Under the pieces are notes generated by a model. The model was not told the origin of the DNA, made no database searches, and saw only the letters and a program-made list of their open reading frames with translations. Positions 46,454 to 56,216 of a stretch of 64,000 nt of DNA are shown here, piece by piece (position 1 is the first letter of the stretch; each line of letters opens with the position of its first letter). This DNA comes from a virus (lineage: Duplodnaviria; Caudoviricetes), in IMG/VR virus record IMGVR_UViG_3300027963_003275, positions 1 to 64,000 of that record; one strand, 5' to 3'. Both the position numbers and the translations under genes were made by a program.

Positions 46454-47156
46454 TATAAAAACAAATAGTATAGAAACACCAAGGGTGGAGGTTCCAGTTA
46501 TTCGTAATTTGGAACCTCCACCTATTCTTATACCAATTAATAGAACACTTCCAAAACCTATTGTGGATGTTCCTATGGATGGTATTCCAAACTATGAACC
46601 TATTGATGCTCCTACAACTGAAGAGTTTAGGAAAATGGTAAATGCCCAACAAGAACCAAAGAAAGAAGAAGAAATACAAGATAAATCCAGAGGACTTCCA
46701 GACACTAAATCAATTACTGATACTTTAAAACAAGCACCAATTTCATTACCACCACAACAACAGAAGATTGATTCTTCAACACCAGAAATAGATGCTCCGA
46801 CTATTAATGTTCCTTATATTGGACCAATTCCAGTCCCCTCTACACAAACGGTTGTATTATCTGGCACCACTGCTACTGCTAGTGTTGCTGCGGCTCTTAT
46901 TGGCAAATCTTTGGTTGAACAGTTGGTAAAAGTTTTAAAACCACCTATTCAGCAGATCTTTGTGCGGGCAAAGCAATTGATGAACCGAGATCTGACGCCT
47001 TACGAGACTCAGTTGCTTTTTGCTTTTGAACTGGATAAGAAGACTTCAAAACTTTTGAAGAAGGAACAGAAGGCTGAGAGATTACGCCAGAGAAAGGCAT
47101 TTGCTGAATCACAACGACATCCGCACATATCTTTGCATAAGGAGAAGAAGGAATAA
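46428..47156 (+). CDS. Pro-rich membrane-associated hypothetical protein
   Basis: Pro-rich N-terminus, hydrophobic TATASVAAALIG segment, basic tail. Confidence 0.65.
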   Translation: MPNVPEIPDIKTNSIETPRVEVPVIRNLEPPPILIPINRTLPKPIVDVPMDGIPNYEPIDAPTTEEFRKMVNAQQEPKKEEEIQDKSRGLPDTKSITDTLKQAPISLPPQQQKIDSSTPEIDAPTINVPYIGPIPVPSTQTVVLSGTTATASVAAALIGKSLVEQLVKVLKPPIQQIFVRAKQLMNRDLTPYETQLLFAFELDKKTSKLLKKEQKAERLRQRKAFAESQRHPHISLHKEKKE

Positions 47157-47667
47157 AGAAGATACCTGCTTTCTTTGCTTCTCCACATTTTAATAATCTT
47201 ACAAGTTCAAAATCCAATCGTGCTTTATCAGTTTCTGCTTGTTGTCTAGCAGTCCAAGTATCTGCTGCTGTCTTGCATCTTGCTTGTAATCCACCATCTA
47301 ATGGAAATGATAAGGTAGCAGATAATCCATAATTATTTGCAAAACTATCTTTTTGACCAGTTCTTTCCAATCCATTTATTCCGGTAGTTGGATCATTATC
47401 AATATCGGCATATGCTTCAAAAGGTCTTGAACCACTTTTAGATGTGGTCATAAAGGGAGTAAGATTAAACGTTGGTCCCTGACAACTTACTCCACCACCG
47501 TATGAATTGGTCACGTATGGACCCTGTAAGACTTGTACTGCTTGGTTTGTTACACTTCCTGTTGATGTTGCCTGAGGATTTGCAATTGCAGTTACAGGAG
47601 TATCCCCCTCTGCATACGCAGGGAGAACAAAGACACTTAGGGCAAGGATTACTTTGAGACATTTCAT
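46945..47667 (-). CDS. Secreted hypothetical protein
   Basis: Signal peptide (PAYA-E); several Cys; beta-rich. Confidence 0.7.
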   Translation of the reverse strand: MKCLKVILALSVFVLPAYAEGDTPVTAIANPQATSTGSVTNQAVQVLQGPYVTNSYGGGVSCQGPTFNLTPFMTTSKSGSRPFEAYADIDNDPTTGINGLERTGQKDSFANNYGLSATLSFPLDGGLQARCKTAADTWTARQQAETDKARLDFELVRLLKCGEAKKAGIFFIPSSPYAKICADVVVIQQMPFSGVISQPSVPSSKVLKSSYPVQKQKATESRKASDLGSSIALPAQRSAE

Positions 47668-47668
47668 C

Positions 47669-48028
47669 TTACTGGGTAAATACTGACATTGAATCTGTAA
47701 CAGATTGAATTGTCGTGGTTCTATTGACTGTTGTATCTTTAATCAATCCAGGACCCATATAAGTTTCTGAAAACTGAAATGGTTGTCCTTGGTTCACAAT
47801 AGAATATCCTGCTCCAAGAGTTGGAGTTCCTGGAATATTGATATTTGTTCCAGTAACTGTATAACTAAATCCAGTTTGGAAATCTTGTTGTCTAATTATC
47901 TCATTTACTGTTGTGGTGGATTCAGTATGAGAAGTTACAGTACCACTAGTAAAGTTTGGTGTGACTGGAGCTGCTAGGGATGGTAAAGAAAACCCTAGCA
48001 GACAAATGCCTGCTAGGATATGTTTCAC
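47669..48028 (-). CDS. Secreted Thr-rich hypothetical protein
   Basis: Signal peptide (SLA-AP); PVTPNFTSG. Confidence 0.75.
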   Translation of the reverse strand: MKHILAGICLLGFSLPSLAAPVTPNFTSGTVTSHTESTTTVNEIIRQQDFQTGFSYTVTGTNINIPGTPTLGAGYSIVNQGQPFQFSETYMGPGLIKDTTVNRTTTIQSVTDSMSVFTQ

Positions 48029-48519
48029 TTGAATACGCTCAGTTCTACACTACGTTGACCAATAGCAGTGGTTCCAGCACCACCACCAGTAACTGTAAGA
48101 GCACCAGTAGTTGTATCAATTGTACCTGCAAGAGTACCTTTCTCACCTGCTACTTGTGTTGTATTCTTACCATATAGAGTTGGTGATGCAATTGCACCAT
48201 TAGTAACTGTCTGTGATGAAACAGTACTGTCTCCAACGTTTAGTGATTCTGTAAATGAGAATGCCTGACCATCATTATTGATAGCATAAGTACCAGCACT
48301 CATCGTTGCTGCTGCACTTGATGTGCCACCAGTCAATCCACCAAGTGCCGAGACACCGATGTTAGTTCCACCAACTGCGTAGGAACTACCAATTCTTTCT
48401 GTTTGTACCGCTGCACCCTGTACTGTTAATTGAACGGAATCAGTGATTCTTGATGTAATTTCACCTGCAAAAACAGGAGTAGTTAAGAATAACGAAAAGG
48501 CTAATAGAAGTCTTTTCAT
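48025..48519 (-). CDS. Secreted Thr/Gly-rich hypothetical protein
   Basis: MKRLLLAFSLFLTTPVFA signal; minus-strand ATAAATA at 48546-52. Confidence 0.75.
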   Translation of the reverse strand: MKRLLLAFSLFLTTPVFAGEITSRITDSVQLTVQGAAVQTERIGSSYAVGGTNIGVSALGGLTGGTSSAAATMSAGTYAINNDGQAFSFTESLNVGDSTVSSQTVTNGAIASPTLYGKNTTQVAGEKGTLAGTIDTTTGALTVTGGGAGTTAIGQRSVELSVFK

Positions 48520-48617
48520 TTTTCTATGTTTAATAGGACTATTAGTATTTATCGTCACCATTTTCATATTTGACTACTTATGGTATAGTATAAATAAGTC
48601 GAACTTATTAAATTTTT

Positions 48618-48824
48618 ATGACTGAACAACAAGAACATCTTGCAAATCTTATAAAGCAAGCACAAGACCTATCCCTTGAATTGGAAGGACTACAAACCAA
48701 GGCTACAGTAAAAAGAGAACTATTTTTGAAAGTACAAGGTGCGATTGAGTATCTTACACAAACAGGTGTATCCCTCCCAGAACCAGAACCCGAAGAAATC
48801 CCACTACCAGAAGTAGCAGAATGA
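48618..48824 (+). CDS. Small coiled-coil protein
   Basis: TATAAATA at 48589; KVQGAIEYL. Confidence 0.7.
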   Translation: MTEQQEHLANLIKQAQDLSLELEGLQTKATVKRELFLKVQGAIEYLTQTGVSLPEPEPEEIPLPEVAE

Positions 48825-48831
48825 TGCACGG

Positions 48832-48852
48832 TCCCCGAAAGGGGACTTTTTT
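48832..48852 (+). terminator. Rho-independent terminator
   Basis: GTCCCC-GAAA-GGGGAC + T6. Confidence 0.9.
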
Positions 48853-48857
48853 ATGCC

Positions 48858-48891
48858 TTGACAACATTGGCATCCAGTGGTATGATAAATA
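48858..48891 (+). promoter_or_regulatory. Composite sigma70 + late promoter (copy 1)
   Basis: TTGACA-17-TATGAT overlapping ATAAATA. Confidence 0.75.
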
Positions 48892-49002
48892 GATGTTAAG
48901 GAATCAACACATTTCTTAATCTTCTGCAACCGAGACCATCAGAAGTAAAGCATCTCTCATACCTGCACTGGAGGGTGTCGTGGAGTATACTGTACTTGTT
49001 CA
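48891..49002 (+). ncRNA. PhotoRC-II-like leader RNA, copy 1 (apparently truncated)
   Basis: TTAAGGAAT/ATTTCTTAA hairpin, CCGAGACC...TCTCTCATACC...GAGGG pattern; similar to the psbA leader. Confidence 0.55.
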
Positions 49003-49033
49003 ATATAAATAAGATACATATGAAATTTATAAA

Positions 49034-50194
49034 ATGTCCCTATCCACCAATACCGTTTATAGAGTTTTTGTAGAAAAACTTGGTGGTGCTAATCCAACTA
49101 CCTTTGTGGGGGATGAAGGTGAAGTATTTTATAATCCAAATGATGGTGTTCTAAAAATATCAGATGGTTCTACTCCAACTGGAATAGTTATGAACCCAAT
49201 AATGCCAGTTGGTTTTTTTACACCACCAGATAATCACTGGTATGTAAATCCAAATAGAACTGATACATACACTTCAACTGGTTCTGTTGCTGCTCCTTAT
49301 AAAACTGTTGGTGCAGCATTAAGTGCAATTCAAAATGCTCTACAAACTGGAATTGTATCTTTTACTGATAATGGAGATAGTATTGCAAATCCACAATTTG
49401 TTATTCTTCAAAGTTCTACAACAGAGAATATAGGACTTACAACAGGACACATTTATATTCAAGGAGATACTACAAGTGGTTCTCAAATGCCCATATGGAT
49501 TTATGGAACAGTCACCATCAATCCAACAGGAGGAACTTTATATCAAAACCGATTTGGACTTTCTAATCTTGGTATTGTAAATACTGGAAGTATTCCAGGT
49601 ATTGCAGCAACGCACTCATTAATAGTTACTGGTTCAGCACCTCTTCGTTGTTATCTAAATGATTGTAATATCATTGCAGGTTCTACAGGAAATCAGGCAA
49701 TTTTTATGGATAATAGTGGAACTGGAACTCAATTATATGCAGAAGTTCAACAATTATCCAGAGCAGGTACAGCAGGAACTGATTATATTGCAAAAGTCAG
49801 TAAAGGATATGCATTTTTTAGTAACTGCTCAACTGGTGGTTCAACTGCTACATTTAATGTAAGTGGAACAGGAACTCTACAAATCCAGTATAGTAAAATT
49901 GAAAGTGCTGGAGAAGCCTGTGTAAAAGTTGATGGTGGAACTGCTATAGTTACTAGCACATCTCTAACAAATACTGTAGGACATGGAGTATCAATGACTG
50001 CTGGTACTCTTGTAACAATCAATAATTACTTTGATATACCTACATCTCCTGCTACTAACAGAGCAATTGCTGGTGTCTCTGGAGTTTTCGTTTTTCATTC
50101 CAATACAGTAGTTGCTTATTTAAAAAATTCAAAGTATAGCACTGCAATTGGTGCTGGATATATTGGATTAGTAACTGCATTAACTGCATTATAA
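49034..50194 (+). CDS. Tailspike-like protein with fibre-type N-terminus and beta-helix (pectin-lyase-like) body
   Basis: GEVFYNP..GVLKISDGSTP.G; WYVNP...GSVAAPYKTV..AL; repetitive beta strands; TATAAATA at 49004. Confidence 0.6.
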   Translation: MSLSTNTVYRVFVEKLGGANPTTFVGDEGEVFYNPNDGVLKISDGSTPTGIVMNPIMPVGFFTPPDNHWYVNPNRTDTYTSTGSVAAPYKTVGAALSAIQNALQTGIVSFTDNGDSIANPQFVILQSSTTENIGLTTGHIYIQGDTTSGSQMPIWIYGTVTINPTGGTLYQNRFGLSNLGIVNTGSIPGIAATHSLIVTGSAPLRCYLNDCNIIAGSTGNQAIFMDNSGTGTQLYAEVQQLSRAGTAGTDYIAKVSKGYAFFSNCSTGGSTATFNVSGTGTLQIQYSKIESAGEACVKVDGGTAIVTSTSLTNTVGHGVSMTAGTLVTINNYFDIPTSPATNRAIAGVSGVFVFHSNTVVAYLKNSKYSTAIGAGYIGLVTALTAL

Positions 50195-50212
50195 TTTATT
50201 TGAGGAAGGGGG

Positions 50213-50246
50213 TTGACAGGATTTGCTGACAATGCTATGATAAATA
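50213..50246 (+). promoter_or_regulatory. Composite sigma70 + late promoter (copy 2, psbA)
   Basis: TTGACA-17-TATGAT overlapping ATAAATA. Confidence 0.78.
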
Positions 50247-50390
50247 GATGTTAAGGGATGTAACGTTTCTTAATCTTGCCGCACCAGGAATAGGCAAGTA
50301 AAATCCGTCCTTATACCTACGCAGGAGGGTTGCGTAGGAATACTTTTACCGTTCAGCACCTCCTGAACTATTACCTACCCCTTTAACGAA
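50246..50390 (+). ncRNA. PhotoRC-II-like psbA leader RNA
   Basis: Hairpins CTTGCC/GGCAAG, CCTACGCA/TGCGTAGG, GTTCAG/CTGAAC; GGAGG/CCTCC pseudoknot potential. Confidence 0.65.
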
Positions 50391-50393
50391 AAA

Positions 50394-51473
50394 ATGACTG
50401 CTACAATTGCTACACGCAAAACTTTTAATGTCTGGGACGAATTCTGCTCCTGGGTGACTTCTACCGATAACCGTCTTTATGTTGGTTGGTTCGGTGTTCT
50501 GATGATTCCAACGTTGCTTGCTGCAACCACTTGTTTTATCATCGCATTCATCGGTGCTCCCCCTGTGGACATTGATGGCATTCGTGAACCTGTTTCTGGT
50601 TCATTAATGTATGGAAACAACATTATCTCTGGTGCTGTTGTTCCTTCCTCTAATGCTATTGGACTTCACTTGTATCCTATCTGGGAAGCTGCTTCTCTGG
50701 ATGAATGGTTATACAATGGTGGACCTTTTCAACTTGTTATATTTCACTTTCTCATTGGTATCTTTTGCTATATGGGTCGTGAATGGGAACTCTCTTACCG
50801 TCTAGGTATGCGTCCTTGGATTATGGTTGCTTACTCTGCACCTGTTGCTGCTGCGACTGCCGTATTCCTGGTGTATCCTTTCGGTCAAGGTTCTTTCTCT
50901 GATGCTATGCCTTTGGGCATTTCCGGTACTTTTAACTATATGCTTGTCTTCCAGGCAGAACATAACATCCTTATGCACCCATTCCACATGCTTGGAGTTG
51001 CTGGTGTCTTCGGTGGTTCACTTTTTAGCGCAATGCACGGTTCGCTAGTGACTTCTTCACTGGTTCGTGAAACTACTGAAACTGAATCGCAGAATTATGG
51101 TTATAAGTTCGGACAAGAAGAAGAGACATACAACATCGTTGCTGCTCATGGTTATTTTGGTCGTCTTATCTTCCAATATGCGTCCTTTAATAACTCGCGT
51201 TCATTGCACTTCTTCCTGGCTGCTTGGCCTGTTGTAGGCATCTGGTTCACTGCTCTTGGTGTATCCACGATGGCTTTCAATTTGAATGGACTGAATTTTA
51301 ACCAATCGATCCTTGATAGTCAGGGTCGTGTTGTAAACACCTGGGCTGATATCCTAAATCGTGCCAATCTTGGGTTTGAGGTGGTTCACGAGAGAAATGC
51401 ACATAACTATCCTTTGGATCTTGCTGCAGTATCTACTACTGAAGTTGCTTTGACTGCTCCAAGTATTGGATAA
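50394..51473 (+). CDS. psbA: Photosystem II D1 protein
   Basis: [39 protein letters not shown]; no intron. Confidence 0.99.
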
Positions 51474-51822
51474 GTTTAGATAAAATCTGAATATTATCCC
51501 CAACTAATCCGAGTGCAGTGTTGCAGTTATTGCATAACACTCCTCGGATTTTTTCTTTATTGTGGCAGTGGTCAATACATTTTTTATTTGTTATATCTCT
51601 ACTACATACTTGGCAGTTATCGTGCTTCATAAGTTCATTATATTCTGCTTCCGATAATTTGAATTTTCTCCTCATATATTCGTGAGGTTTATAATATTGC
51701 TTTCTATTTTTAGTAGAACATTCTTTACATTTTGGTTGAAGTCCTATTTTGCCAGAACTATAAGTTCTTTTATGGAACAAATCTTCTGATAGTTCCATCT
51801 CACAAGAAGTGCAAGTTTTCAT
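51436..51822 (-). CDS. Endonuclease-VII-family (F-CphI-like) free-standing homing endonuclease
   Basis: CxxC pairs, IDHCH...[14 protein letters not shown]; minus-strand TATAAATA at 51848-55. Confidence 0.88.
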
Positions 51823-51873
51823 TATTGTAATGCGTATTTTCTATACTTATTTATAATAAATAATCAATAAAAA

Positions 51874-51939
51874 ATGCTCCTCATCCTCATACTCTTCCAA
51901 CTCTTCGGAGTGTTCCTCTTTCTAATGTCCCTACTATGA
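51874..51939 (+). CDS. Possible 21-aa hydrophobic peptide
   Basis: MLLILILFQLFGVFLFLMSLL; ATGA-coupled to next ORF. Confidence 0.4.
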   Translation: MLLILILFQLFGVFLFLMSLL

Positions 51940-52064
51940 TTTCCTCACACACCCCATATAAACTCGCAGAGATTATCAGAGATACGTGGTATAATCTATA
52001 TACACCAACCAAGTACAATCAAATTCACAAACAACTTAAATTGAGAGAGAAACCAAAAAAATGA
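51936..52064 (+). CDS. Small hypothetical protein (42 aa, MISSHTPYKLAEIIRDTW...)
   Basis: ATGA-coupled on both sides; manual translation. Confidence 0.55.
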   Translation: MISSHTPYKLAEIIRDTWYNLYTPTKYNQIHKQLKLREKPKK

Positions 52065-52378
52065 ACAAGTATAATACCGAAGATTACTTTTCCGTCATTG
52101 AGACTAAGACTGGTAGAAAAATTGTAGATTGTGGTGACGAACAAGATGCTCATGCAATGGTTGCATTTGATCCTGCCAATCGCACTTATACCAGGAATAA
52201 GTTTCTGATGGGTCAAGTGATTGATATAGTGATGCCCAAAGCACTTCCTACCAATGAGATAGTCCAAGGTGCTACTGGTAGTTCTTCGGAAATTCCAACT
52301 GCAACTGGTGTCAATGGACCTGGACCACTACCTCAAATCAAACTACCAGAAGGACAACAAGAACCCTTTGTGGTATGA
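52061..52378 (+). CDS. Hypothetical protein
   Basis: TGRKIVDCGDEQDA motif. Confidence 0.7.
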   Translation: MNKYNTEDYFSVIETKTGRKIVDCGDEQDAHAMVAFDPANRTYTRNKFLMGQVIDIVMPKALPTNEIVQGATGSSSEIPTATGVNGPGPLPQIKLPEGQQEPFVV

Positions 52379-52572
52379 ATCACCGAAAGCATAAACAATC
52401 TGATAATCTTAAAAAGAAGAGGATGTACACACCTGAGGGTTACCTAAAAGATCCCCCAGATACTAAATGTCCATACTGTGGGGAAACTAAAAAAGCATGT
52501 TCTTATGTAAATAGTTTATCAAGAGCATGGGCACGAGATGCCTGTGCTCATAAATACAAAAAAAAACTATAG
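52375..52572 (+). CDS. Small Cys-containing hypothetical protein
   Basis: CPYC...C...C. Confidence 0.65.
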   Translation: MNHRKHKQSDNLKKKRMYTPEGYLKDPPDTKCPYCGETKKACSYVNSLSRAWARDACAHKYKKKL

Positions 52573-52579
52573 CAATTAA

Positions 52580-54163
52580 ATGGGAAGATACATTAAGACA
52601 AGAATTGTTACTAGTGGATTGATTTATGTGAATGATGCAGGAAATACTAAGTCATATTCTGGTGTTGGAACAGCAGTTAAAAACTTAGTCGGTTATGGTG
52701 CGACTAATACAACATTTAATCAAACATTTGTATCTTCAGGGACAACAAGTTATTTTGTATCAACAGGTTCAACTTCTTATATAAGCAATACAAATGTTTC
52801 TGTATCTGCTTCAACAGGTCGTGGATTTACTATTTGTATGATGATTAAACCACAAACTTTAACGAATAGTGAATGGAATTATTGGTTTCAACAGGATAGC
52901 TCTAGGTCTTCCGTACAATTTGGAAGATATGGAACTTCTGGTGGATGGGAGATGAAAGATAATGCAAAACAAGAAGGAGAAAAAACATTCACTTCAGTTG
53001 GCACTACAACTTGGACGGTTCCAGTTGGTGTAACTACTATCACTGCTATTTGTATTGGTGCTGGAGGAGGTGGTGGAGGTCATAATTTTGATGAAGGAGG
53101 AGGTGGAGGTGGAGGTGGAGGACTGTCATTTGGTTCTACTATATCTGTAACTCCTGGTGATATTTTGTATATAAGAGTTGGTTCTGGTGGAACTGGAGGA
53201 ATTTCAACAACTTCAAGTAGTTCCAATGTTGCTGGAGCAGGTTCAACTGGAGGATCAAGTTATATAAAAACAGGATCACATTCTGGAACTTCACTTCTTG
53301 AGGCTTTTGGTGGAACTGGAGGACAAGGAGGTGATGGTCCAGGATCTCCAAATCCTGGAGTTGGTGGAACATCTGGTGGAACTGCTAGAACTAATGGTGG
53401 TTCTGGTGGAATTGGAGGAAGAGGGGGAAGTTTTTATTCTGGTGGAGGTGGTGGTGCTGGTGGATATACTGGAGTTGGGGGAACTGGTGCTATGTCTTCT
53501 GGGACTACTGCTTCAGATAGAGCTACCTCTGGTCTTGGAGGTGGTGGTGGAGGGGGAGGAAATAGCCAACCCAGCACACTTATCAATTCATATACAGAAA
53601 TTTTAAATTCTGGTGGTGGAGTTGGGATATATGGATCTGGATCTAACGGATCTGGAGGAAACTACACATCAGGATATTCTAATAGGGGTGGAGGTGGAGG
53701 AAGTTCAGGAACAACTGGAGATTCTGCTGGGGGACTTTATGGTGGAGGTGGAGGAACAAGACCAGAGAGTACTCTGGGAATTAATTTTGTAAGAAATGGT
53801 GGAACTGGTGGACAAGGTGCTGTAAGAATTGTCTGGGGAAGTGGCAGATCGTATCCAACCACTAGTATTTCTAATACTCCCATACCACCAAAACAATCTA
53901 CATCTTTTTCTGATTGGACTTTTGTTGTTTGTGGAGTAACAACAAACTATTATACTTTTATATCAACTAATGGAAGCACTAAGACCTTGGGATCTTCTAA
54001 TGATTGGAACAACTCTGATGAAATTAATTTGGATAAAATATTTGGAACAGGAACAAACAATTATAGTTGCTTATGGAATAATGTGATGATTTATAATCGT
54101 GAATTAACAAATGATGAAATTCAAATAAACTTTGAAGCATATAGACGTAAGTTTAATCTTTAA
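52580..54163 (+). CDS. Gly-rich fibre-like protein with LamG-like termini (paralogue 1)
   Basis: DAGNTKSYSG N-terminus, TWTVPVGVT..GGGGG Gly-rich core, IYNRELT..EIQ.NF C-terminus. Confidence 0.75.
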   Translation: MGRYIKTRIVTSGLIYVNDAGNTKSYSGVGTAVKNLVGYGATNTTFNQTFVSSGTTSYFVSTGSTSYISNTNVSVSASTGRGFTICMMIKPQTLTNSEWNYWFQQDSSRSSVQFGRYGTSGGWEMKDNAKQEGEKTFTSVGTTTWTVPVGVTTITAICIGAGGGGGGHNFDEGGGGGGGGGLSFGSTISVTPGDILYIRVGSGGTGGISTTSSSSNVAGAGSTGGSSYIKTGSHSGTSLLEAFGGTGGQGGDGPGSPNPGVGGTSGGTARTNGGSGGIGGRGGSFYSGGGGGAGGYTGVGGTGAMSSGTTASDRATSGLGGGGGGGGNSQPSTLINSYTEILNSGGGVGIYGSGSNGSGGNYTSGYSNRGGGGGSSGTTGDSAGGLYGGGGGTRPESTLGINFVRNGGTGGQGAVRIVWGSGRSYPTTSISNTPIPPKQSTSFSDWTFVVCGVTTNYYTFISTNGSTKTLGSSNDWNNSDEINLDKIFGTGTNNYSCLWNNVMIYNRELTNDEIQINFEAYRRKFNL

Positions 54164-54207
54164 AAATTAAATTTTTAAAATAAATAAAAATAAAAATAAA
54201 AAGTATA

Positions 54208-55821
54208 ATGACAATAGCACATAGTCCTCGTATTGTTATTAATGGATTGATTTATGCGAATGATGCGGGAAATACTAAGTCATATTCTGGTGTTGGAACA
54301 GCAATCAAGAATCTAGTTGGTTATGGTGCGACTAATACAGCATTTAATCAAACATTTGTATCTTCAGGGACAACAAGTTATTTTGAATCAACAGGATCTT
54401 CATCTTATATAAGCAATACAAATGTAAGTGTAAGTGCCTCTACGGGAAGAGGATTTACGATTTGTATGATGGTAAAACCACAAACTTTAACGAGTAGTGG
54501 ATGGAATTATTGGTTTCAACAGGAAAGTTCTATAACTTCAGTACAATTTGGAAGATATGGAACTTCTAATGGATGGCAGATGAAAGATAGTGCTGCTCTT
54601 GATGGAGAGCAGGTATTAACTACAGTTGGTACTACAACTTGGACTGTTCCTGTTGGTGTAACTTCTGTCACTGCTGTTTGTGTTGGTGGTGGTGGAGGTG
54701 GAGGTGGATTTAGTCCATCATCATCAGGTGGTGGTGGTGCTGGAGGAGGTGGTGGAGGTGGAGTTGCTTATGGTTCTTTTTCTGTAACTCCTGGAGATAC
54801 TCTTTATATTAGAGTTGGTTCTGGAGGTACTGGAGGTATTTCTCAGTTTTCTCCTACTAATGGAACTTCAGGTCAATCAAGTTATATAAAAACAGGATCA
54901 CATTCTGGAACTTCACTTCTTGAAGGTGGAGGTGGAGGTGGTGGAGTAGCAGGTTCAATTGGTGATTTTGGTACTAGTGGAAGTGGAGGTTCTTCTACAG
55001 GAACTGCAAGAAGTGGTGGAACATCGGGTGGAACTGGTGGAGCTGGATCTTCTGCTTTTCGTGGTGGTAGAGGTGGTGGAGGAGGTGGAGCAGGTGGATA
55101 TGGAACATCAGGATTTGGTGGTGGAAATGGAGGAAGCAATGTGACCGATCTCACAGATAATACAGGTGGATATGGAACCAATGGTGCAGGAGGTGGCGGT
55201 GGTGTTTCTAGTAGCTTAAGTAGTGATGTGAATAATTATGGTGGTGGAGTCGGTATATATGATGGGACTAGATTTACTGGTGCAGTTGGTGCCCCAGGGG
55301 GTGAGACTGCTCTTCCTGGGTCTAATAATTCTGGTGGTTTTGGTGGAAATTCTAGTGGGGGTACTAGTTTGAGTGAAACTACAAAATCAGTTGCTGGAAG
55401 TTATGGAGGAGGAGGAGGTACGATGAGGGCCAACACTACTACTTTTGTAAGAAGTGGTGGAACTGGTGGTCAAGGTGCTGTGAGAATTGTTTGGGGTTAT
55501 GGTAGAAATTTTGCTAATAATACTTCAATTGGATCAAGCATACCATCAACACAAACAGTATCATTTAGTGATTGGACTTTTGTTGTTTGCGGAGTAACAA
55601 CAAACTACTATACTTTTATATCCACAAATGCATCTACTAAAACTTTAGGTTCTTTGAATGATTGGAACAACTCTGATGAAATTAATTTGGATAAAATATT
55701 TGGAACAGGGACAAGTAATTATGATTGCTTATGGAACAATGTGATGATTTATAATCGTGAATTAACAAATGAAGAAATTCAAATAAACTTTGAAGCATAC
55801 AGACGTAAGTTTAATCTCTAA
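54208..55821 (+). CDS. Gly-rich fibre-like protein with LamG-like termini (paralogue 2)
   Basis: Same architecture; near-identical termini to paralogue 1. Confidence 0.75.
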   Translation: MTIAHSPRIVINGLIYANDAGNTKSYSGVGTAIKNLVGYGATNTAFNQTFVSSGTTSYFESTGSSSYISNTNVSVSASTGRGFTICMMVKPQTLTSSGWNYWFQQESSITSVQFGRYGTSNGWQMKDSAALDGEQVLTTVGTTTWTVPVGVTSVTAVCVGGGGGGGGFSPSSSGGGGAGGGGGGGVAYGSFSVTPGDTLYIRVGSGGTGGISQFSPTNGTSGQSSYIKTGSHSGTSLLEGGGGGGGVAGSIGDFGTSGSGGSSTGTARSGGTSGGTGGAGSSAFRGGRGGGGGGAGGYGTSGFGGGNGGSNVTDLTDNTGGYGTNGAGGGGGVSSSLSSDVNNYGGGVGIYDGTRFTGAVGAPGGETALPGSNNSGGFGGNSSGGTSLSETTKSVAGSYGGGGGTMRANTTTFVRSGGTGGQGAVRIVWGYGRNFANNTSIGSSIPSTQTVSFSDWTFVVCGVTTNYYTFISTNASTKTLGSLNDWNNSDEINLDKIFGTGTSNYDCLWNNVMIYNRELTNEEIQINFEAYRRKFNL

Positions 55822-55844
55822 ATAATCATAAGTTGCAAATACTT

Positions 55845-56216
55845 ATGGTTCCTCTACATTCGTTCAAGGACTATCTGTTTAATCTAGAGACAACAAGTAA
55901 AGCAGAAGCAAAACGAATGTGGAGGAGGATTATAAAAGAACAATGGGAACATAAGTGTGCCTATTGTAATTCAGAAGACAATATCACACTAGACCACATC
56001 ACTCCACAGTGTAAGGGTGGTCTGGACATTAAGACTAATGTAGTTGCTTGCTGTCATTCGTGCAATCAATCTAAGGGACATACTCCTTGGGAGCAGTGGT
56101 ATTATAATCAAGACTTCTTTACAGAAGCAAAAAGAGATGCTATAGTAAAATGGATGAAACCAGAAGAAAATTCAAATCTATATAAGTATAGACCAAGAAG
56201 AAATAATGCGTCTTAA
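55845..56216 (+). CDS. HNH endonuclease
   Basis: CAYC...TLDHITP...GG...NVVACCHSCNQSKG. Confidence 0.9.
   Translation: MVPLHSFKDYLFNLETTSKAEAKRMWRRIIKEQWEHKCAYCNSEDNITLDHITPQCKGGLDIKTNVVACCHSCNQSKGHTPWEQWYYNQDFFTEAKRDAIVKWMKPEENSNLYKYRPRRNNAS

Follow-up and report, generated by a model that had tools for sequence, protein, structure and literature searches.

How does a phage that carries a free-standing endonuclease gene beside a conserved photosynthesis gene keep its own copy of that gene from being cut? This question is raised by the IMG/VR virus record IMGVR_UViG_3300027963_003275, of which we analysed positions 1 to 64,000 (hereafter the window, 64,000 nt of a 74.8-kb viral record with an estimated completeness of 39%). 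The window encodes an intronless psbA, the gene for the photosystem II (PSII) protein D1, and, on the opposite strand, an endonuclease VII (EndoVII)-type gene that runs into the psbA 3′ end. In S-PM2, the nuclease F-CphI likewise lies at the psbA 3′ end, and the resident psbA is protected by a group I intron. An earlier note on this DNA had proposed that protection comes here from substitutions in the target site itself, so that a selfish nuclease may be changing the amino acid sequence of D1. The features on which the question turns are as follows.

50394..51473, + strand: psbA, encoding D1 (359 aa) in a single, intronless open reading frame (ORF); PF00124, E 4e-90
51436..51822, − strand: free-standing nuclease gene with an EndoVII (DHHRN) motif, 128 aa; PF02945
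51436..51473, both strands: convergent overlap of 38 nt between the nuclease 3′ end and the psbA codons of the D1 C-terminal extension
51848..51855, − strand: TATAAATA, motif resembling a T4-type late promoter, ~25 nt 5′ of the nuclease ATG; putative function
51372..51410, + strand: substitution cluster GGG327, TTT328 (F), GTT331 (V), AGA334, CAT337 and TAT339 (Y), surrounding the S-PM2-type intron site between 51395 and 51396
51348..51888, both strands: probable mobile cassette of 541 nt (psbA codons 319-359, nuclease gene and putative promoter region), 100% identical to contig L008
51282..51293, + strand: codons 297-300 (TTG AAT GGA CTG), with Leu for Phe at codon 300; codon 297 is an intron site in relatives

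The minus-strand gene belongs to the F-CphI family

The nuclease ORF matches the Pfam family PF02945 (Endonuclease_7) over residues 50-122 (E 5.3e-16; 58.7 bits, cut-off 23.6) as well as PHROG endonuclease VII families, and it aligns with F-CphI over its full length at 30% identity (BLASTP). The five residues that define the DHHRN motif of F-CphI, D101, H102, H104, R110 and N118 (PMC6083498), all find their counterparts in this alignment as D84, H85, H87, R93 and N101, which upholds the F-CphI-family membership assigned earlier. The same columns are invariant across eight members of the F-CphI clade, and two CxxC pairs in the N-terminal region also align with F-CphI. The ORF is intact, with all catalytic residues present. 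Its motif is C-terminal (residues 50-122 of 128), which is the layout given in PMC6083498 for the ‘endonuclease clade’, where the motif sits behind an N-terminal DNA-binding region. Among solved structures the best match is the sequence-specific Hpy99I (PDB 3fc3; E 1.2e-6, residues 2-123), named in PMC6083498 as the modelling template for F-CphI; Hpy99I, however, is a restriction enzyme from bacteria that is paired with a methylase, whereas the window gene has the character of a mobile phage gene. The match to T4 EndoVII structures is confined to 43 residues (66-108; E 0.13-0.97), and the full-length similarity with an N-terminal catalytic domain that marks gp49-type proteins was not found with them. 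The closest named homolog is the endonuclease VII of S-SKS1 (YP_007674393; 59% identity). The distribution of such genes is sporadic, with an EndoVII-type gene beside 15 of 116 unselected psbA alleles. We are confident that the minus-strand gene is a mobile homing-type nuclease.

The resemblance to the F-CphI system of S-PM2 goes beyond family membership. Both proteins combine a Cys-rich N-terminus with a C-terminal EndoVII/DHHRN motif, both genes lie at the psbA 3′ end with TATAAATA 5′ of them, and the same conserved psbA segment is implicated. The layouts differ. The earlier description as an antisense F-CphI-like gene captures the family, but F-CphI itself lies on the same strand as psbA, 67 nt downstream of it, whereas the window gene lies on the opposite strand and overlaps psbA by 38 nt, as had been claimed. 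The convergent overlapping layout is kept in all 10 relatives found through the nuclease. The overlap encodes the final residues of the C-terminal extension of D1, a part that is cleaved off in the mature protein.

The exons of S-PM2 psbA meet between R334 (CGT) and N335 (AAT). The 60-bp F-CphI substrate, derived from S-BM4, is centred on this junction and spans codons ~325-344 (PMC6083498, Table S3), and the claim that F-CphI targets psbA near a group I intron site thus stands. According to PMC5931967, the S-PM2 intron splits the F-CphI recognition sequence and thereby gives self-immunity. The window allele differs in having no intron: its psbA is uninterrupted, and a search with Rfam found no Intron_gpI in 47000-56000, so the protective intron of collaborative homing is missing. 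It carries M331V, F339Y and synonymous recoding instead. As the two nucleases share 30% identity, the target of the window enzyme is putative.

The resident D1 departs from the canonical sequence around the R334-N335 junction

The resident D1 reads NLNGL (L300), GFEVVHE (F328 and V331) and AHNYP (Y339), and the three altered stretches that the earlier note had listed are therefore all present in the translation. Within codons 327-339, six codons depart from the canonical sequence of nuclease-free alleles, and V331 and Y339 flank the S-PM2 intron site. To judge how unusual these residues are, we compared the allele with 53 nuclease-free relatives and with 116 evaluable, deduplicated alleles of unselected phage psbA. 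V331, Y339 and L300 are each found in 0 of the 53 relatives, while F328 is not unusual (24/53); the unselected alleles include no Y339, six with a residue other than Met at 331 and five with L300. The synonymous CAT at H337 is enriched, at 19 of 25 nuclease loci versus 13 of 53 nuclease-free loci. The remark on atypical aga and ggg codons holds in part: R334 (51393-51395) is the sole AGA among the 12 Arg codons of psbA and G327 (51372-51374) the sole GGG among its 32 Gly codons, both inside the 541-nt cassette, but AGR at codon 334 is common without a nuclease (15/53).

In D1, H332, E333, D342 and A344 are described as ligands of the Mn4CaO5 cluster, and M331 is two residues from the Mn ligand E333. 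F339 is reported to contact CP43-F317 hydrophobically (bioRxiv 10.1101/2025.07.17.665390), and the backbone nitrogens of N338 and F339 help to bind the chloride Cl-2 (PMC9896922). Y161, D170, E189, H190, H332 and E333 are invariant columns of our alignment, and H337, D342 and A344 are present in the resident D1; the Mn ligands and other key residues are thus intact. Judged by sequence, F339Y and M331V are conservative changes and PSII function is probably retained. A plastid-like D1 family without the C-terminal extension has both residues, L300 in 61 of 96 anchored relatives (the majority) and Y339 in 9, and so both are compatible with PSII function. Eight short metagenome contigs (L105, L106, L122, L126, L139, L147, L150 and L151) whose D1 ends at A344 carry L300 together with Y339. 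The D1 proteins of dinoflagellates and Euglena are also without a C-terminal extension.

The nuclease gene and the psbA 3′ end are shared as one tract

The nuclease of contig L008 is identical to that of the window. Over 1583 aligned columns the two sequences have 172 differences, none of them between 51348 and 51888. The borders are sharp: the 60 nt immediately outside the tract contain 19 differences, and left of it the two psbA genes are ~85% identical, no closer to each other than to unrelated phage alleles. The tract reaches from 48 nt upstream of the R334-N335 junction through the nuclease gene and encloses the whole substitution cluster, so that the codons around the site travel with the nuclease gene. 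An identical tract in diverged psbA is the signature expected of homing with co-conversion of flanking markers; the tract alone does not locate the cut position. Contigs from two RNA libraries join the sequence from 51336 onward to different upstream psbA, which agrees with a mosaic boundary there. A second, unrelated type of convergent nuclease (L104, L134 and L016) shows the same pattern, with identity from about −270 to +500 around the junction and flanks that are diverged or unalignable. Very likely, the nuclease gene and the psbA 3′ end move together as a cassette. Two further runs, metatranscriptomes from different studies, contain contigs of 248 nt and 176 nt that match the nuclease body within 51564-51821 without a differing letter; these contigs are strandless and DNA carry-over is possible, so they are no proof of transcription or of antisense pairing.

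T4 SegF and SegG are examples of intronless homing by free-standing endonucleases. Intronless homing is a known concept for free-standing phage endonucleases (PMC3984707; PMC3037559), and the window resembles it in three respects: a conserved gene has a free-standing nuclease gene as its neighbour, the resident target is not the sequence found in nuclease-free alleles, and flanking markers have spread with the nuclease, here as the 541-nt tract. It differs in the enzyme, which is of the DHHRN and not the GIY-YIG type, and in the candidate immunity changes, which are amino-acid replacements in a highly conserved segment of a photosystem core protein and recur across many nuclease clades.

Relatives of the nuclease stand beside interrupted, substituted or canonical psbA

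A search with the window nuclease returned 11 loci, of which one (L018, a 21-residue match) was dropped and 10 were kept:

L008: nuclease 100% identical; D1 variant as in the window
L009: nuclease 89% identical; group I intron (Intron_gpI, 72.7 bits) exactly at R334-N335, with canonical exons
L010: nuclease 81% identical; D1 residues canonical, AGG at codon 334
L011-L014: nuclease 77% identical; M328L the sole change in D1
L015, L016, L017: other EndoVII-type nucleases, ~30% identical; D1 variant as in the window

The D1 variant of the window is also found in L019, where a same-strand F-CphI-like gene and then an HNH gene follow psbA.

We then surveyed the F-CphI clade with a profile of eight clade proteins, which gave 80 viral loci (not deduplicated). 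Fifty-five of these have a nuclease at least 72% identical to F-CphI, and in 53 of them the neighbouring psbA bears an intron at the 334-335 junction; in partial loci the intron was deduced from the alignment ends, and for L336 it was confirmed by reading through the intron sequence. The two intronless loci are both substituted: L313 has M331A beside an intact 146-aa nuclease, and L319 combines I331, S336 and Q338. A canonical intronless psbA was thus found beside none of the 55 nucleases (0/55), and among these close relatives of F-CphI every resident psbA has either an intron or substitutions no more than five codons from the site. The 25 more distant loci are mixed, with 10 canonical intronless alleles, five with an intron, three with S336 and either Q338 or G338, one with Y339 and six without psbA within 2.6 kb. 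In three contigs (L113, L116 and L149), the same-strand F-CphI-clade ORFs have no ATG near the conserved start and begin inside the psbA 3′ end or overlap it (−36 to −81 nt), which is suggestive of a non-standard start codon or of translation coupled to that of psbA.

S-SKS1 (L002; NC_020851, 22229-30588) carries the closest named homolog of the window nuclease. Its gene order is psbA, EndoVII and HNH (HNH_3/NUMOD4), so that an EndoVII gene again lies directly downstream of psbA, and its D1, which reads GLEVIHERNAHNFP, deviates at 328 and 331 (GLEVIHE) and has AGG at codon 334. In contrast to the window, its nuclease is encoded on the same strand as psbA with the HNH gene next to it, and its D1 keeps F339 and F300. 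A second reaction-centre gene follows 2.2 kb further on, and then another annotated ‘endonuclease’ without a Pfam match.

Y339 recurs beside EndoVII-type genes in many psbA backgrounds

To check the proposed co-occurrence, we scanned for the Y339 DNA pattern without regard to the neighbouring genes, which returned 11 stretches in a viral collection and 51 in a metagenome collection; among 185,579 prokaryote species-representative genomes the pattern matched once, in a Geitlerinema metagenome-assembled genome (MAG). Before counting, we removed L137, which is not psbA, and seven or eight plastid-like hits that end at A344 and are not of phage type, and the rest were deduplicated. This left 34 evaluable unique phage-type Y339 alleles, and in 31 of them an EndoVII-type gene directly follows psbA, on one strand or the other. 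Of the others, L125 has an HNH-like ORF, and L138/L141 and L140 have none. The baseline is the 15 of 116 unselected alleles given above, to which four with other nuclease-like genes can be added; part of this sample came from a degenerate pattern that returned psbA in general. The predicted association of Y339 with an adjacent nuclease is therefore strong in deduplicated alleles (31/34 versus 15/116).

The association also holds against close relatives. Using codons 150-295 to find the nearest F339 neighbour of each allele, we found a nuclease with 17 of 19 Y339 alleles and with 2 of 19 neighbours; this matched count, with 15 distinct neighbours (two with a nuclease) for 19 alleles, does not amount to a formal phylogenetic test. 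Over these codons, most Y339 alleles are closer to an F339 allele than to any other Y339 allele, and 11 changes are needed to place Y339 on the psbA tree of the same codons, so the Y339 alleles are not a clade. A tree of 51 nucleases has 30 rows with Y339, four with an intron at 334 and 17 with an intronless F339 allele, and the Y339 rows are spread over most nuclease clades and both orientations. A per-position scan peaked at +14 A, the middle base of codon 339; this is biased by ascertainment through Y339 and was not used as evidence.

L300 lies near a separate intron site

The earlier note had read all three D1 substitutions as target-site changes. This fits V331 and Y339, which flank the site, but not L300, which is 102 nt from the R334-N335 junction and outside the cassette. 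Codon 300 lies 8-10 nt downstream of another insertion point, as six relatives (L109, L121, L127, L131, L136 and L145) have a group I intron within codon 297, between CT and C (Rfam, 76-94 bits). Twelve of the 14 L300 alleles that could be evaluated have an EndoVII-type neighbour. The residue is, however, also typical of the lineage with V331 and F339, and together with its frequency in plastid-like D1 this makes its link to the nuclease weaker. L300 may be the relic of an earlier event of this type at codon 297, independent of the cassette; we prefer this reading of L300, though at somewhat less than even odds.

Introns at H337-N338 were found in L085 and L237. Further psbA introns lie near codons 61, 97-108 and 184-231 (L131, L305, L308, L316, L324, L331 and L340), and L131 has three Rfam-supported introns in its psbA.

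Proposed self-protection by recoding and its alternatives

The account that we favour, with a fair margin of doubt, is that the window harbours a free-standing DHHRN nuclease cassette whose site is cut in other alleles and that the resident psbA is protected by recoding. During mixed infection, the nuclease would cut psbA alleles without the cassette at or near the conserved R334-N335 junction, the putative cut site. The break would be repaired from the cassette-bearing genome, and the nuclease gene with the adjoining psbA 3′ end would be copied as a co-conversion tract. The resident allele would remain uncut owing to GGG327, TTT328, GTT331, AGA334, CAT337 and TAT339, a recoding that is expected to block cleavage and includes two non-synonymous changes, M331V and F339Y, at otherwise near-invariant D1 positions. 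In sister lineages such as L009, an intron would give the same protection. The nuclease would be expressed late, from a late-type promoter of its own. That V331 and Y339 are the changes that confer immunity seems to us slightly to moderately more probable than the contrary, as far as comparison of sequences can tell.

Several observations weigh against this account. With 30% identity to F-CphI, the window enzyme could have a different site. Close relatives do without the substitutions, as the nuclease of L010 (81% identical) lies beside a canonical D1 and those of L011-L014 (77%) beside alleles that differ by M328L alone; so do 10 of the 25 more distant F-CphI relatives, with their canonical intronless alleles, and 17 of the 51 nuclease-adjacent alleles of the tree, which keep F339 and have no intron. 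None of the 15 nuclease-bearing alleles in the unselected samples had Y339, which makes Y339 one solution among several and not a rule. Conversely, Y339 occurs without a detected nuclease gene in L138/L141, in L140 and in one cyanobacterial MAG. In the approximately unbiased (AU) test, a single clade of the five V331/Y339 alleles was not rejected (p 0.61; low power). The independent-pairs test of Y339 against the nuclease gave three starred pairs, all in the expected direction, with a median p of 0.25 (low power), and the same test of the nuclease against the traits gave 11 starred pairs, few of them informative, and no significance. The prediction that S336/Q338 alleles always lie beside an EndoVII-type gene failed for that family: a scan gave 11 loci, nine unique and eight evaluable, and such a gene was present in 3 of 8, the others having a GIY-YIG+NUMOD3 gene by Pfam (one allele, on three contigs) or HNH-like ORFs recognised by eye and without a Pfam match (four alleles). 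Finally, V331 with F339 was found at 12 viral loci, and only three have an EndoVII-type match, adjacent in L285, ~1.1 kb downstream in L289 and as a 27-aa remnant in L290; three others have an HNH-like ORF, one a GIY-like ORF and five nothing recognisable (one being too short downstream). Several nuclease families have thus settled in the psbA 3′ flank, and the substitutions are found with types other than EndoVII as well.

The nuclease could be mobile while V331 and Y339 are passengers in its co-conversion tract, with immunity arising from synonymous changes, a target other than psbA or regulation of the enzyme. Because the substitutions lie inside the 541-nt identical tract, linkage alone predicts that they co-occur with the nuclease, and the canonical D1 beside the close relative in L010 and the enrichment of the synonymous CAT at H337 fit this explanation as well. 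Linkage of a single origin is nevertheless a poor fit to the 11 changes of Y339, which occurs with most nuclease clades, in both orientations and in many psbA backgrounds. Nor would passengers account for the lack of canonical intronless alleles beside the 55 nucleases at least 72% identical to F-CphI, or for A331, S336 with Q338 or G338, and Y339 all lying within five codons of the same site. We consider the passenger explanation unlikely. Still less probable, in our view, is that the D1 substitutions are lineage markers or PSII adaptations to host or habitat, linked to the nuclease through shared ancestry. The AU test leaves the monophyly of the five V331/Y339 alleles standing, L300 and Y339 occur in the plastid-like D1 family and Y339 also in the Geitlerinema MAG, and V331 with L300 and F339 is often found without an EndoVII gene, all of which such markers could explain. 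Shared ancestry is hard to reconcile, however, with the matched neighbours, where the nuclease accompanies 17 of 19 Y339 alleles and 2 of 19 of their F339 counterparts, with the closeness of most Y339 alleles to an F339 allele, and with the exact sharing of the variant segment by the window and L008, whose psbA is otherwise ~85% identical. The changes, moreover, flank known intron sites and are not scattered.

A last alternative takes the ORF for a Holliday-junction resolvase with a housekeeping role, like T4 gp49, or for an inactive relic, with no bearing on the psbA sequence. The Endonuclease_7 family of Pfam does include resolvases, and with an estimated 39% of the genome in the record a separate resolvase may or may not lie in the remainder. 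The motif, however, follows a Cys-rich N-terminal region and is itself C-terminal, Hpy99I and not T4 EndoVII (E 0.13 over 43 residues) is the best structural match, and the gene is sporadic among psbA loci and in its relatives always adjacent to psbA. An identical cassette within diverged flanks and an intact ORF with its catalytic residues also speak against this explanation, to which we give hardly any credence.

Protection by recoding may have wider consequences. On the D1 segment that holds the Mn4CaO5 cluster and the second chloride, three or more group I intron sites (codon 297, 334-335 and 337-338) converge, together with nuclease genes from two families supported by Pfam (EndoVII type and GIY-YIG) and with further HNH-like ORFs that lack a Pfam match. 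It is conceivable, though we would put it at just under an even chance, that the need of nuclease-bearing genomes for self-protection has repeatedly forced replacements at near-invariant residues of this segment, namely F339Y, M331V/A/I/L and A336S with N338Q/G. If so, homing endonucleases, and not photosynthetic function, would set part of the phage D1 sequence, and the PSII behaviour of infected cells may change measurably. Homing endonucleases are usually regarded as neutral passengers on conserved DNA; this locus points to an altered host protein, since here the genome that carries a free-standing nuclease seems to be shielded from it by amino-acid replacements in a photosystem core protein and not by an intron. 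The alleles compared here would give, for related enzymes at a single site, a natural set of alternative immunity states (intron, Y339, S336/Q338, A331 and none), and the new intron sites and nuclease layouts extend the S-PM2 model. For environmental phage psbA, a common marker, the case suggests that part of the diversity is shaped by selfish elements. Intronless homing and the F-CphI family are already known; the recurrent amino-acid route to D1 immunity, the antisense layout and the extra intron sites appear to be new. A literature search judged mostly by titles and abstract openings found no report linking D1 F339Y, M331V or F300L to homing endonucleases, and none describing the antisense layout or the extra intron sites.

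Expression signals and neighbouring genes

The late promoter that the earlier note assigned to the nuclease gene is plausible at this position. The TATAAATA motif at 51848-51855 is present as described, and among 51 related nuclease genes next to psbA it is again found 5′ of 21, including F-CphI; across the window, however, the late-promoter motif occurs at chance level (eight found versus 7.2 expected), and its function here is putative. Transcription from it would produce RNA antisense to the psbA 3′ end. In S-PM2, an RNA of ~200 nt antisense to the psbA 3′ end, CfrI, has been annotated (PMC2984593), and such a transcript is expected in both phages, with the difference that in the window the predicted antisense transcript would be the nuclease mRNA itself.

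Two signals precede psbA on its own strand:

50213..50241, + strand: sigma-70-type promoter-like site 5′ of psbA (TTGACA, 17-nt spacer, TATGAT; 11/12 consensus matches, with TG), assigned from the consensus match alone
50261..50351, + strand: PhotoRC-II RNA motif (RF01717) in the leader of psbA, scoring 49.5 bits (gathering score 39)

PhotoRC-II was also found 5′ of psbA in L009, L085, L109, L131, L136 and L145. The window has a second copy at 48907-48996 (RF01717, 43.3 bits), 5′ of an ORF of 386 aa (49034-50194) that is also preceded by TATAAATA at 49004-49011.

Other variant psbA alleles are directly followed by further nuclease-type genes (L385:1766-2407, − strand; L386:2669-3379, + strand; and in L287, L294, L286, L125 and L288), which include a GIY-YIG+NUMOD3 gene (Pfam), a GIY-like ORF and HNH-like ORFs of two kinds that have no match in Pfam. 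In L286, L287, L294 and L290, short minus-strand ORFs retain just the C-terminal tail of the convergent nuclease (…QYLEQSRQL-like), which suggests replaced or decayed nuclease copies.

The window psbA has ~80-82% DNA identity to Synechococcus myovirus psbA, and the window also encodes a DnaB-like helicase and a ribonucleotide reductase (PHROG matches). Beyond the cassette lie two Gly-rich ORFs in tandem, 52580-54163 (527 aa) and 54208-55821 (537 aa), both matching phrog_4474 (unknown function). The first has an additional weak match to a tail fiber assembly family, and the pair has the appearance of tandem paralogous structural genes.

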